Shown here one piece after another: positions 11,555-18,727 of a stretch of DNA of 25,183 nt (position 1 is its first letter; the number at the start of each line of letters is the position of its first letter). The notes beneath the pieces are model-generated. The model saw only the letters and a program-made list of their open reading frames with translations, searched no databases and was not told the origin of the DNA. The position numbers and the translations under genes are program-made. Location of the stretch: positions 1-25,183 of the forward strand of contig CAYUDF010000002.1 of NCBI GenBank assembly GCA_964443465.1, in the 5' to 3' direction. This DNA is from an uncultured bacterium. Its GTDB lineage: Bacteria; Krumholzibacteriota; Krumholzibacteriia; WVZY01; JAKEHA01.

Positions 11555-12388
11555 TTACTGCTCGTTGAGGCTCCAGTCGTAGTCCAGGTGTTTGATCTTG
11601 TAGTTATCCGCTGCCAGATACTCCTGGTCCTCGTTTTCGACATACCGGCTTACGAAATTGATTACGGCCTGTGTTTTCTCGCTACGTTTTCCCGCGGGAT
11701 CGCCCGTACCGTAGCGCGAAACAAAATCGCCGCCGAACCAGTCAAAAATCGCCGACAGGCGCACAATGCCCGCCTTACGATCGATCCGGAACCGGGTATC
11801 TCCGGCCATAAACCGCGCTGACTGGTCTTCCAGTTGTGCATCCAGATTATCTCCCGTGTATGGCTCGTTTCTCAACATCGGACACGACAACGCGGCGCAC
11901 ACCAGCGCCATATGAATACGGGGCTCATCAAACCCGGCCCTTAACATTTTGTGTTCGATCGTATCCAGTGTAATCGACTCACCCATCACACGGAACTGGA
12001 CTTCCTTCCACGCTCCGGAGATCTGCCGGATACTGTTTTTTGGATACACAATGGATTTAAGTCTCGATGACTTGATCGGGTAATTGTCGACGATCAGTTT
12101 CACCGTCAGACCGTTGTACGCGTTGATCCAGAACGCGATTTTTACCTCGTCGCTCCACGATACATACGTTTCGCGGTCCAGCGCGTCCAGCGATCGGGCG
12201 TACGTTTCCAGCCGCGAACCATTGTCTCGAAGTGCGGCATAATCCACAAGGCCGTTGTCGTCCACGTAATCCGACAATACCGACGCATAACTATCGCAGG
12301 CAAACTCCGACGCAGCTACCGGCGACACACCGATCAGGAAAATCAGAACACAAACAGCAACGGAATTCGCAATGGAGTAAGATTTCAC
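11555..12388 (-). CDS. DUF547 domain protein with N-terminal signal peptide
   Basis: VDYAAL, AFWINAYN, TLD.IEH..LR, EPRIHMALVCAALSCP, LSAIFDWFGGDF and YDWSLN are DUF547 motifs. The GTG start overlaps the upstream stop (GTGA). Confidence 0.9.
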   Translation of the reverse strand: MKSYSIANSVAVCVLIFLIGVSPVAASEFACDSYASVLSDYVDDNGLVDYAALRDNGSRLETYARSLDALDRETYVSWSDEVKIAFWINAYNGLTVKLIVDNYPIKSSRLKSIVYPKNSIRQISGAWKEVQFRVMGESITLDTIEHKMLRAGFDEPRIHMALVCAALSCPMLRNEPYTGDNLDAQLEDQSARFMAGDTRFRIDRKAGIVRLSAIFDWFGGDFVSRYGTGDPAGKRSEKTQAVINFVSRYVENEDQEYLAADNYKIKHLDYDWSLNEQ

Positions 12389-13092
12389 CGGTTTTTCCTT
12401 CTGGCTTTGAGATACAAAGGGTAATACTGGAATATCGTTGTTATGATCTTTGTCCCCGCCAGGACCGTTCCCCTTACAGTACCCGTGATCTTGGATTTAC
12501 CGATCCGCTTGCGGTACCGTACAGGGACTTCGAGTATCCTGCTGCCGTACGCGATCGCTTTGGCCTGCATCTCCACGTTCCACCCAAACGTCGGGTCGGT
12601 CATACCGTACGCAATGAGGTGGTCGCGCCGGATCGCCCTGAAGGGCCCCATGTCGGTAAATTGTTTCCGATAGAGCAACCGCATCAGAAAAACTGCCAGC
12701 ATGTTGCCCCAGCGCTGATTCCACGGCAGAGCACCCTTTTCCGCCTTGCCCGCCACACGCGATCCGATCACAAAATCCGCCAGGCCGTCCAGGATCGGTT
12801 TCAGCAGAAGACCGAGGTCTTCCGGATAGTCAGAGTGATCTCCATCCAGAATCACAATGACATCGGTATTGTTGTCAGTGAGAGAAATTCCCTTCAGGCA
12901 GGCGGCGCCGTATCCCCGCCGGTTTTCGCGAACAACGGTTGCGCCGTGACCGGTCGCAACTTCTCCCGTGCGGTCGGTCGAGCCGTTATCTACAACGATC
13001 ACCCGATCGACAAAGTCCGCGGGAATTTCGTCCAGAACCAGTCCGATCGACTGCTCCTCGTTAAATGCCGGAATGACAACAATTGTATTCAT
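12385..13092 (-). CDS. Glycosyltransferase family 2, DPM1 / polyprenyl-phosphate sugar synthase-like
   Basis: VIPAFNEE, VDNGSTD, GYGAAC, DxD motif LDGD, DMGPFRAI, FGWNVEMQ and YRKRIG.SK. No C-terminal TM block. The ATGA start overlaps the upstream stop. Confidence 0.9.
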   Translation of the reverse strand: MNTIVVIPAFNEEQSIGLVLDEIPADFVDRVIVVDNGSTDRTGEVATGHGATVVRENRRGYGAACLKGISLTDNNTDVIVILDGDHSDYPEDLGLLLKPILDGLADFVIGSRVAGKAEKGALPWNQRWGNMLAVFLMRLLYRKQFTDMGPFRAIRRDHLIAYGMTDPTFGWNVEMQAKAIAYGSRILEVPVRYRKRIGKSKITGTVRGTVLAGTKIITTIFQYYPLYLKARRKNR

Positions 13093-14369
13093 GATTGTTC
13101 CAACGGTTTGTCTTTTCGGAAAAAATCATACACGAGCAGTCCGTAAAACGGAAGATACTCAAAAAGATAGTTGTGCCAGGGCAGGTACCAGGCGCCCTCC
13201 ACCGCAAAAACGCCCCATACTCGGTAAGACACAAAAACCAGGCCGGTAAAAAGGATCCACGCGCGGTTGGGGAAAAAGCACAAAAACGGGATAATCCACG
13301 ATACGTACCACGGGTACAGCGTCGGCGCCAGCAACAGGCCGGCCCCGATGACCACCAGTCCGTAGCGCAACACGTCTTTTTCCCTGAGAGCTCTGTGTAC
13401 CACCACAACAACCAGAAGTAACACGAGCAGGCCACGGGTCAACCGCGGGTCCCGCAGAATACGAAGCAGAAGATCAAACACCAGCCCGTTAAAATGCCAC
13501 TCCGCTCCGTAGACTTTCAGGCTGTCAAACAACCCGGCGCCGGCGCCGGCAAACGGCAGGTACCCGGCGACAACCACCAGGGCCGCCACAGCCACCCCGA
13601 TGAAGTGACTCTTGTTGCGAAGAAAAAACGGAATAAAAACGGCGGCAAGATACTTTGCGAGAATGGACAGTCCCAGTACAGCGAGACCTCGGGTTTTATT
13701 GCCCCGACAGATCAGCCACAGCGCCAGCATCAAAAAGAATATACCGATGCTGTCCAGATGTCCGGAGTGACCGGTTTCAAAAATAACCAGGGGATTCCAT
13801 GCGTAAATGATGCTGTCCACCGGATTTTCCCGCCGGCTCCTCAACAACAGCATTATCACCGCGATAACACCCAGGTCAAAAATGACAAAAAACGTCTTCT
13901 GCGTTTGTGGAACCGGCTTTATCCACGCGGCGAGGGCAAACACGACCTGCGAAAGCGGCGGATAAATCGTGGGCATGTGTTTGTGGCTGACGCCTGGGTA
14001 GTTGGTGTCCCTGAGAGACTCCAGTTCGGGTGAATCGGGCGGCAGCGCAAACGGATTAAAACCGTTTGTGATTAACCTGCCTTCCCACACGTAACGGTAT
14101 ATATCGGTGGACAACACCGGTTCCGCCGGGATAAGAACGGCCCTGCTTACCGACGCCACCAGAAAAATATAAATCAGTGTGAAGCGCGTGGTGGCGGGTG
14201 ATTTTTTTCGAACAACGAGGGCGGTTATATAAGCCACAAATACGGCGGCAAACAGCAGGAGGAACAAATCCACGCGTGTGTTTAATCCGTCGATGGCTGC
14301 GATCAACAGAAACAATGACGCGATCGCGGCGCCGGCGCCCACGAAAATCCATCGGCTGTTCCGGTCCAT
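13089..14369 (-). CDS. Polytopic GT-C-fold glycosyltransferase (GT87 / DUF2029-like)
   Basis: Many hydrophobic helices. The large first loop has STDIYRYVWEG...NPF..PP and TIYPPLSQ, followed by YAWNPLVIFE..SGHLD and PWY. Start placed at ATG 14369, 1 bp after the upstream stop. Confidence 0.8.
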   Translation of the reverse strand: MDRNSRWIFVGAGAAIASLFLLIAAIDGLNTRVDLFLLLFAAVFVAYITALVVRKKSPATTRFTLIYIFLVASVSRAVLIPAEPVLSTDIYRYVWEGRLITNGFNPFALPPDSPELESLRDTNYPGVSHKHMPTIYPPLSQVVFALAAWIKPVPQTQKTFFVIFDLGVIAVIMLLLRSRRENPVDSIIYAWNPLVIFETGHSGHLDSIGIFFLMLALWLICRGNKTRGLAVLGLSILAKYLAAVFIPFFLRNKSHFIGVAVAALVVVAGYLPFAGAGAGLFDSLKVYGAEWHFNGLVFDLLLRILRDPRLTRGLLVLLLVVVVVHRALREKDVLRYGLVVIGAGLLLAPTLYPWYVSWIIPFLCFFPNRAWILFTGLVFVSYRVWGVFAVEGAWYLPWHNYLFEYLPFYGLLVYDFFRKDKPLEQS

Positions 14370-17891: not shown

Positions 17892-17980
17892 GATGGGATC
17901 TCCTTTTGTTCAAACTGCAATGAGACGCCCGAGAAGCCGGCGCCCGTAATGGGAGGTTGGTCGATGCCTCTGAGGATATC

Positions 17981-18727
17981 TTACGGTTTATCTACGGTAC
18001 CGGCGGGTCCCGTGCGCCCGGGGCGCCGGTACTCTTCACTGTAAAACCTGGCCAGTTTGTGTGGTGATACACCCAGGTTGTACAGGATCGTCATCATCCA
18101 GTTTTTCAGAACCCGGCGCGTGATTCCTTCGGCTTCCAGGCGGCGGCTCGAAGTCCGGACTGCGGAGTCCAGTATCCGGAGGTTGCCTCCGGACCGTCGG
18201 ATCCGGCGGACAATTTCCACGTCCTCCATAATCGGAATATCCTTATACCCCCCGATTTTCTCAAAAAAATCGCGACGGACAAAAATAGCCTGATCGCCGT
18301 AGGGCAGGCGGTTCCAGCGAGAACGTTTCGTGACAAAAAATGACATGAGCCGATAGATGAAACGATCAGAATCAAAACACAGACGGAACGCGCCGGCGGC
18401 GGTGCCAGGGGTCAGAGCACTGTCGATATCGGCCAACGCGCCTTGCGGAAGACTGGTATCGGCGTGGAGGAAAATCAGTACGTCTCCCGTTGCTTTCGCG
18501 GCGCCGGCATTCATCTGCCGCGCCCGTCCCGGCGGAGAAACCAGTTTGATCACCCGGTCGTCCGATATTCTTCCGATTGTCCCCCCTTTGGGGTCACCGT
18601 CAACAACGATCAGTTGACACCGTTCAAAACCATTGATTGTCGCAATGTGATCGAGCAGACCCCCGATGGTGTCCTGTTCGTACAGAACAGGAACAACAAT
18701 TGAATATTCGTGGGCGGCTGGATGCAA
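17981..18727 (-). CDS. TIGR04283-type arsenosugar-associated glycosyltransferase (GT2; rSAM/selenodomain-associated transferase 2)
   Basis: SIVVPVLYE, GRARQMNAGA, FLHADT.LP, AGAF, YGDQAIF, GGY.DIPIMED and TSSRR. TTG start. Confidence 0.9.
   Translation of the reverse strand: MHPAAHEYSIVVPVLYEQDTIGGLLDHIATINGFERCQLIVVDGDPKGGTIGRISDDRVIKLVSPPGRARQMNAGAAKATGDVLIFLHADTSLPQGALADIDSALTPGTAAGAFRLCFDSDRFIYRLMSFFVTKRSRWNRLPYGDQAIFVRRDFFEKIGGYKDIPIMEDVEIVRRIRRSGGNLRILDSAVRTSSRRLEAEGITRRVLKNWMMTILYNLGVSPHKLARFYSEEYRRPGRTGPAGTVDKP

Follow-up and report, generated by a model that had tools for sequence, protein, structure and literature searches.

Among the closest described systems to the locus treated here is the start of the arsenosugar pathway in Synechocystis sp. 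PCC 6803, which comprises ArsM and ArsS. ArsM methylates As(III), and the product of ArsS is 5'-deoxy-5'-dimethylarsinoyl-adenosine (Cheng et al., 2021, cited after PMC12159101). Arsenosugar phospholipids and isoprenoid arsenosugars are major arsenic forms in marine food webs and sediments. Isoprenoid-linked 2-O-methyl arsenosugars occur in algae and sediments, their genes being unassigned (PMC7345539). In the literature searched, enzymes have been assigned only to the first steps, ArsM and ArsS, and none to adenine removal, glycoside formation, arsenosugar phospholipids or isoprenoid arsenosugars. Here, we describe an eleven-gene minus-strand operon (18727 to 8336) in the genome of an uncultured member of the Krumholzibacteriia (contig CAYUDF010000002.1 of assembly GCA_964443465.1), in which arsM and arsS are followed by a membrane glycosylation module that is probably coupled to them functionally. 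The window, i.e. the whole stretch of DNA analysed, is an entire 25,183-base contig of a metagenome-assembled genome (MAG) that is 88% complete. Its DNA is present in marine sediment metagenomes; the runs listed for it are all DNA and include no RNA run. A literature search found no published link between GT-C or DPM1-like genes and arsenosugar genes. The operon represents an arsenosugar-type cluster to which a presumable lipid-carrier glycosylation module has been added.

The window shares the start known from Synechocystis: It has ArsM and ArsS, its operon begins with a TIGR04283-family glycosyltransferase (GT) gene, and the genome also encodes TIGR04282. Both families are defined by their context as 'rSAM/selenodomain-associated transferases'. 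Unlike the Synechocystis system, the operon adds genes for a membrane GT2, a GT-C, a DPM1-like GT2 and DUF547, GSDH-like, UbiE-like and ArsC-like proteins. A second system for comparison is methylthioxylose capping in mycobacteria. The methylthioxylose donor derives from 5'-methylthioadenosine (MTA), the counterpart of the ArsS product with sulfur in place of arsenic. In Mycobacterium tuberculosis, MtxS (Rv0539) makes decaprenyl-phospho-methylthioxylose and MtxT (Rv0541c) transfers the sugar to lipoarabinomannan (Angala, 2017, cited after PMC8780516). In this pathway, a 5-substituted 5-deoxypentose travels on polyprenyl phosphate to an envelope lipoglycan, the logic that we propose for the DPM1-like protein and GT-C acting after ArsS. 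However, the heteroatom is sulfur and the organism an actinobacterium, and the likeness to the window is mechanistic only. A DPM1/GtrB-like GT2 is also paired with a polytopic GT-C in the three-component systems of periplasmic glycosylation GtrA/GtrB/GtrC, CsbB/GtcA/YfhO and ArnC/ArnT. In contrast to them, the window operon has no GtrA/GtcA-type flippase gene, its GT-C is GT87-like and nearest to PimE, PIG-M and ALG3, and the module is joined to TIGR04282/TIGR04283 and arsenic genes. With the beta-glycan synthases BcsA and PgaC, the window GT2 appears to have in common a D,D,D,QxxRW-type catalytic domain and flanking transmembrane helices, but it comprises just 487 aa, and neither a PilZ domain nor a partner resembling BcsB or PgaD was seen.

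The eleven genes of the operon, beginning with the first, are:

17981-18727, minus strand: TIGR04283-family GT2 ('arsenosugar biosynthesis glycosyltransferase'), operon gene 1 (NCBIfam TIGR04283)
16839-17891, minus strand: ArsM, As(III) S-adenosylmethionine (SAM) methyltransferase (matches to PDB 5evj and 4fr0, Cys motifs)
15874-16839, minus strand: ArsS, radical SAM enzyme (TIGR04167 and PF12345 DUF3641)
14371-15834, minus strand: membrane GT2 of the cellulose/poly-N-acetylglucosamine synthase type, 487 aa (QQHRW motif)
13089-14369, minus strand: GT87/DUF2029-like GT-C (PF09594 and AlphaFold model)
12385-13092, minus strand: DPM1/AglJ/GtrB-like GT2, 235 aa, candidate polyprenyl-phosphate glycosyltransferase (top matches in that family)
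11555-12388, minus strand: exported DUF547 protein (PF04784)
10837-11553, minus strand: class I glutamine amidotransferase-like protein (PF00117), probable start 11553
9610-10833, minus strand: GSDH-like probable lipoprotein with the fold of the pyrroloquinoline quinone-type glucose/sorbosone dehydrogenases (PF07995)
8886-9590, minus strand: UbiE/MenG-family SAM methyltransferase (TIGR01934), probable start 9590
8336-8773, minus strand: ArsC-like putative arsenate reductase of the low-molecular-weight phosphatase family, last operon gene (top PDB matches arsenate reductases)

The preliminary description of this DNA had named the first six genes and their spacings, and these proved exact when read in the sequence. 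The TIGR04283 gene and arsM are separated by 89 bp. The stop and start codons of arsM and arsS share the sequence TGATG (1 bp overlap), and the two genes are predicted to be translationally coupled. A gap of 39 bp precedes the membrane GT2 gene, the ATG of the GT-C gene follows 1 bp past the GT2 stop codon, and the GT-C and DPM1-like genes overlap by 4 bp (ATGA). As a unit, however, the block 12385-18727 is too short and represents only the front half of the operon. The DPM1-like gene overlaps the DUF547 gene at GTGA, the next two gaps measure 1 bp and then 3 bp, and close gene packing persists down to 8336, which gives nearly twice the length. The earlier unit thus omitted the DUF547, glutamine amidotransferase, GSDH-like, UbiE-like and ArsC-like genes, and the CofC/MobA-like TIGR04282 gene on another contig of the same genome (contig C105; L154:1614-2297, minus strand) had been overlooked. 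A promoter and terminator scan was not above shuffled expectation; the sole well-placed hairpin (8301-8284) lies after the ArsC-like gene.

Evidence for coupling comes from the phylum itself. In 208 Krumholzibacteriota genomes searched for ArsS, GT-C, TIGR04282 and TIGR04283, ArsS and GT-C occur together in 42, ArsS alone in 8, GT-C alone in 3 and neither in 155. ArsS is thus found in 50 genomes and GT-C in 45. TIGR04282 is above cut-off in 51 genomes and accompanies ArsS in 42 of the 50, and TIGR04283 is above cut-off in 27 and accompanies ArsS in 23. Consequently, ArsS is tracked better by GT-C than by TIGR04283 (42 versus 23 of 50 genomes). These counts overstate the statistical weight, because related genomes are not independent. 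Patterns within genera and families remain informative nevertheless. One genus has 5 of 17 genomes that lack both ArsS and GT-C. In family f9, where ArsS and GT-C are rare (8 and 7 of 91 genomes), six genomes carry both. In genus g5, TIGR04283 is found in none of 17 genomes, yet ArsS and the membrane GT2, GT-C and DPM1-like genes (together the GT module) are present. TIGR04282 retains its overlap with ArsS even though, in families f1 and f2, the two genes are unlinked, being on separate contigs or at a distance above 1 Mb.

Gene order was examined in 40 fetched regions. In f1 and f2, the syntenic order is GT2, GT-C, DPM1-like, DUF547, (glutamine amidotransferase), (GSDH), UbiE and ArsC. Synteny of the gene set extends over more than 25 related genomes, and a distant family of the same phylum has the set reordered. 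In f9, the same genes are arranged differently, and ArsS is followed directly by a DPM1-like::TIGR04282 fusion. Where ArsS is located on a separate contig, the GT block still terminates with an ArsC-like gene. The arrangement is more than chance. Three g5 genomes (G179, G185 and G189; loci L137, L139 and L141) present a variant: Their sole ArsS is above cut-off, has ~48% identity to that of the window and lies among unrelated genes, and the block of GT2, GT-C, DPM1, DUF547 and ArsC is found on a contig other than that of ArsS.

A further line of evidence is provided by natural protein fusions, which link the GT-C, DPM1-like, TIGR04282 and TIGR04283 families. Two-domain DPM1-like::TIGR04282 and three-domain DPM1-like::TIGR04282::TIGR04283 proteins exist. 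The two-domain query matches more than 4300 proteins at E<=1e-20, among them proteins from Phycisphaerae, Desulfomonile, Thermodesulfobacteriota and Abyssubacteria. Three-domain proteins of ~670-700 aa are common (e.g. P0154, P0146 and P0239; loci L155 and L156). Other fusions join GT-C to a DPM1-like domain (P0055, P0061) or TIGR04283 to GT-C (P0108). Since the DPM1-like and GT-C proteins, whose genes overlap in the window, occur elsewhere as one polypeptide, they can be regarded as a pair of donor-maker and donor-user. A tree built from DPM1-like domains places the window protein with domains fused to TIGR04282, TIGR04283 or GT-C and with domains from arsenic-type clusters of other phyla, and the Gemmatimonadota proteins outside this group (SH-aLRT 84-94, not maximal). 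Co-inheritance, conserved and shuffled synteny and the fusions to TIGR04282/TIGR04283 thus bear out the link between the GT2, GT-C and DPM1-like genes and the arsenic genes that the preliminary description had drawn, and a functional coupling of the GT module to the arsenic genes is considered probable for this lineage.

The TIGR04283 protein scores 241.3 bits against a curated NCBIfam cut-off of 182 and is therefore a member of this family. ArsM matches the solved Chlamydomonas ArsM over residues 3-348 (PDB 5evj, E 1e-111) and also 4fr0 (E 6e-98); the four conserved As-binding Cys motifs TSACC, GCG, NCV and GEC align with 5evj. Although arsenite methyltransferase models rank top, the protein remains under the NCBIfam cut-offs (PRK11873, 200.7 versus 263; AsSugarArsM, 108 versus 400). 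Compared with the NCBIfam models, the algal/Cyanidioschyzon type is the closer one. ArsS reaches 425.8 bits with TIGR04167 (cut-off 300), and both the radical SAM domain PF04055 and the C-terminal PF12345 DUF3641 match. It is the Cys form, without an in-frame TGA. As a member of this family, it would transfer the 5'-deoxyadenosyl moiety to dimethylarsenite. The established role of the ArsC-like family is arsenate reduction. The top PDB matches of the window protein (2l17, E 2e-20; 1lk0, E 3e-19) are arsenate reductases, far ahead of tyrosine phosphatases, and its NCBIfam scores are under cut-off. The CX5R loop is kept, but both resolving cysteines of the glutaredoxin- and thioredoxin-coupled types are missing, with no Cys at the positions of Cys80/82 (Synechocystis) or Cys82/89 (S. 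aureus). The protein may belong to a single-Cys type that employs an external thiol, or else may not be an arsenate reductase. Acr3 was not found with the models used, which in an 88%-complete genome does not show its absence.

The three proteins of the GT module resemble enzymes of lipid-carrier glycosylation and polymer synthesis. The membrane GT2 contains an FKTQQHRW motif and has hydrophobic N- and C-terminal segments. Its top models are CelA (121.6 bits) and PgaC (112.9 bits), both far under the cut-offs, and it matches BcsA (4hg6) with E 1e-25. Relatives within the phylum have 64-86% identity and mostly 487 aa. The ESM Atlas yielded just generic GT2 clusters and a homologue search just generic names. 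A QxxRW-type signature by itself does not establish a polymer product. The GT-C protein matches PF09594 with 28.7 bits (Pfam cut-off 25), and PF26314 is listed on its homologues. Asp89, located in the STDIYRYVWEGR loop, the first extracytoplasmic one, is invariant in 24 homologues. The AlphaFold model of GT-C has a pLDDT of 94.7. In Foldseek, its top matches, at TM-scores of 0.52-0.58, are glycosylphosphatidylinositol mannosyltransferase I (9wno), PimE (9dm7), ALG3 and ALG6. The model supports the view that GT-C shares the fold of enzymes which take polyprenyl-phosphate sugars onto lipid-linked acceptors. From its fold class and the natural fusions to a DPM1-like domain, GT-C itself would use a polyprenyl-phosphate sugar as donor. 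The DPM1-like protein scores 132 versus 325 with AglJ, 86 versus 375 with dolichyl-phosphate hexose transferase and 57 versus 370 with PpgS, all under cut-off, and matches the Pyrococcus DPMS (5mlz) with E 1e-9. It resembles polyprenyl-phosphate glycosyltransferases and lies outside every named equivalog.

The exported DUF547 protein matches PF04784 with 94 bits. Signal-peptide-like N-termini are found across 19-20 orthologues, in which H159, C164, C169 and P170 (a Cys-x4-Cys-Pro site) and also a Trp and an Asp are invariant. The Cys-x4-Cys-Pro site might have a redox role or serve in As(III) binding. A model with a pLDDT of 91.9 had no match to a solved fold: Foldseek yielded none at E<=0.001, and the best Z in VIA-align was 4.7. 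DUF547 genes occur in arsenic-type clusters of several phyla. The glutamine amidotransferase-like protein (PF00117; PRK07053, 181.9 bits, below cut-off) is syntenic in part of the family, and the profile match sets in at residue 31-32 within its long open reading frame (ORF). The GSDH-like protein matches PF07995 with 165 bits and has a hydrophobic N-terminus ending in LAQTGC; its gene is syntenic in f1 and f2. The UbiE-like methyltransferase reaches 233 bits with TIGR01934 (cut-off 158), its probable start at 9590 being deduced from its translation and from where the profile sets in, and its gene is kept at the same position in most f1/f2 clusters.

How might these enzymes act together? First, adenine would be removed from the ArsS product. 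The resulting 5-deoxy-5-dimethylarsinoyl-ribose would be activated as a nucleotide sugar, for which the CofC/MobA-like TIGR04282 protein is a candidate enzyme. The DPM1-like enzyme would load the activated arsenoribose onto polyprenyl phosphate, and the lipid-linked arsenosugar would be flipped across the membrane. On the periplasmic face, GT-C would pass the sugar to the glycan or glycolipid that the membrane GT2 produces, and the exported DUF547 protein and the GSDH-like lipoprotein might then have this product as a substrate in the periplasm. TIGR04283 would represent a parallel cytoplasmic branch toward soluble arsenosugars. It is possible that the UbiE-like methyltransferase is linked to the isoprenoid-linked 2-O-methyl arsenosugars. 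The preliminary description had left two roles for the dimethylarsinoyl-ribose, a carrier-loaded sugar or an acceptor, and either might apply. The whole carrier mechanism, in which arsenoribose on polyprenyl phosphate is moved by GT-C to an envelope glycan or glycolipid, is the one that we prefer but is put forward tentatively, as plausible rather than probable. If true, this carrier route would be the arsenic counterpart of mycobacterial methylthioxylose capping, and sediment bacteria, besides algae, would be a possible source of isoprenoid arsenosugar lipids in sediments. Regardless of the mechanism, the operon and its relatives supply candidates for the late steps (TIGR04282, the DPM1-like GT2, the GT87-like GT-C, the membrane GT2 and the exported DUF547 protein) with a testable order of action.

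To see the module in other contexts, 80 loci with GT-C relatives were gathered across many phyla. Many of the GT-C relatives stand alone. Omnitrophota, Planctomycetota (Scalindua and a Planctomycetales MAG) and a deltaproteobacterial MAG again show contexts of the arsenic type, their loci combining GT-C, DPM1-like, DUF547, ArsM-like and TIGR04282/TIGR04283 genes; one Omnitrophota locus also has an ArsC-like gene. Some of these arsenic-type loci contain a fusion of a radical SAM/SPASM protein to ArsM instead of ArsS. An example is the 842-aa protein encoded at L055:12576-15104 (plus strand), a radical SAM/SPASM protein other than ArsS fused to an ArsM-like domain, with further cases in L052, L006 and L016. 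In Omnitrophota, the fusion gene lies between DPM1-like::TIGR04282 and DUF547 genes, and a relative is present in Scalindua. The radical SAM/SPASM::ArsM fusion may represent a second route to a carbon-arsenic bond. When GT-C proteins from arsenic contexts were considered as one clade, this had to be rejected: They fall into at least six well-supported groups amid non-arsenic ones, with the deep nodes unresolved.

As a second phylum, that of the deltaproteobacterial MAG was surveyed. Among 301 genomes, ArsS is present in 111 and the GT-C family in 36. Forty sampled ArsS loci have TIGR04283 within 10 kb in 15 cases and TIGR04282 in 13. Conversely, 20 GT-C loci are accompanied by a membrane GT2 in 15, a DPM1-like gene in 13 and TIGR04282 in 10 cases, and by ArsS only in 3.

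A number of observations speak against the explanation proposed above. TIGR04167 is missing in 5 of 5 tested Gemmatimonadota genomes that have a related triad of GT2, GT-C and DPM1, and no arsenic genes are found in the neighbourhood of this triad. ArsS is also missing in the Omnitrophota and Planctomycetales genomes that possess DPM1, GT-C, DUF547, ArsM, TIGR04283 and TIGR04282. In the second phylum, just 18 of the 36 GT-C genomes have ArsS, and the 40 ArsS loci have a nearby GT-C in one case and DPM1-like, GT2 or DUF547 genes in none. An ArsS-negative genome contains a clean operon of GT2, GT-C, DUF2064 and DPM1-like genes beside sulfur-trafficking genes. Three-domain DPM1-like::TIGR04282::TIGR04283 proteins were considered as components of arsenic clusters and rejected, as all three examined stand alone. 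In the 88%-complete window genome, neither a flippase gene nor an MTA phosphorylase above cut-off was found with the models used, which for the phosphorylase does not show absence. Finally, all assignments within the GT module lie under the NCBIfam equivalog cut-offs, and because of this they do not fix donors and acceptors.

The preliminary description had made its proposal depend on the GT triad not occurring mostly apart from arsM and arsS. In Krumholzibacteriota the link holds, with ArsS in 42 of 45 GT-C genomes; beyond this phylum it loosens, as the five Gemmatimonadota genomes and half of the GT-C genomes of the second phylum (18 of 36) are without ArsS. Therefore, the module is not arsenic-specific in general. 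The best description is a widespread membrane glycosylation module, including TIGR04282/TIGR04283, that some lineages, most consistently Krumholzibacteriota, have joined to arsenic genes. It consists of a cellulose-synthase-like GT2, a GT87-like GT-C, a DPM1-like GT2 and TIGR04282, to which TIGR04283 and DUF547 may be added, and in Krumholzibacteriota it is inherited with ArsS. Since TIGR04282 and TIGR04283 travel with this module often without ArsS, the NCBI label 'arsenosugar biosynthesis glycosyltransferase' for these families may be too narrow. It seems rather doubtful that several phyla make arsenic-bearing envelope glycoconjugates or isoprenoid-linked arsenosugars via a route of TIGR04282, DPM1-like and GT87-like GT-C proteins. 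The ArsS-free four-gene module mentioned above (L201:4801-9320) adjoins, within L201:4801-13097, genes for TusA/DsrE, rhodanese and a di-haem cytochrome c peroxidase, a hint that its context there concerns sulfur more than arsenic.

Some of these observations nourish the strongest competing explanation, which we regard as somewhat unlikely: From common sugars, the module would make an envelope glycan or glycolipid of an ordinary kind, free of arsenic, and arsenic would be involved indirectly, either because the product or its lipid-linked precursor serves as aglycone for TIGR04283 or because the glycan forms a protective or sequestering layer. A similar module is present in ArsS-free genomes, and as it occurs there without ArsS, it needs a non-arsenic substrate in them. 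Furthermore, the pair of GT2 and GT-C is conserved across arsenic and non-arsenic contexts, and the closest structural relatives of GT-C move mannose or glucose. Against this explanation stands genus g5, which lacks TIGR04283 but inherits ArsS together with the GT module and TIGR04282. In addition, the fusion of DPM1-like domains to TIGR04282/TIGR04283 and their grouping apart from the non-arsenic Gemmatimonadota enzymes point to a special donor and not to a housekeeping hexose.

Alternatively, the module could be a general route by which SAM-derived 5-substituted 5-deoxypentoses, originating from MTA, 5'-deoxyadenosine or the ArsS product, reach envelope glycoconjugates, with arsenic being one cargo where ArsS is present. 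For such a route, the mycobacterial methylthioxylose pathway offers a precedent, in which one enzyme synthesizes the polyprenyl-phosphate sugar and a dedicated one transfers it (PMC8780516). The occurrence of the module with ArsS, with the radical SAM/SPASM::ArsM fusion or with neither would also be accommodated. Nonetheless, the clusters examined showed neither an MTA phosphorylase nor a gene of comparable kind, and a non-arsenic cargo is pure conjecture. This explanation appears improbable. Least likely, and in our view very improbable, is that an envelope operon is merely co-transcribed or co-inherited with neighbouring arsM and arsS: Synteny inside one phylum does overstate independence because kin share gene order, and ArsS loci of the second phylum are almost never near the module, but co-occurrence holds across separate contigs, gain and loss coincide inside a genus, the same gene set appears in different orders between families, fusions join GT-C, DPM1-like, TIGR04282 and TIGR04283, and the combination is found in at least four phyla.

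Some features of the surrounding DNA deserve mention. Divergent from the arsenic operon, an operon of thiO, thiG, tenI/thiE, thiE and thiD extends from 19001 to 23293. Upstream of it, a match to the thiamine pyrophosphate riboswitch was detected at 18858-18967 (plus strand; 53.3 bits versus an Rfam gathering score of 54.3, E 1e-9). The divergent intergenic region is common to the thi and the arsenic operons, and ~130 nt are left for the promoter of the latter. The two tandem TMP-TENI/ThiE-family genes (21183-21836 and 21833-22468, plus strand) overlap by 4 bp. The product of the first one scores 139.9 against the ThiE cut-off of 145.1 and may be a TenI-like tautomerase. On the other side, a gene for an ADP-forming acyl-CoA synthetase (6075-8177, minus strand) is located just downstream of the arsenic operon; its top model, 4-hydroxybutyrate-CoA ligase, yields 634 bits, far under the cut-off of 1300. 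An ORF of 1333 aa is found at 2077-6078 (plus strand).

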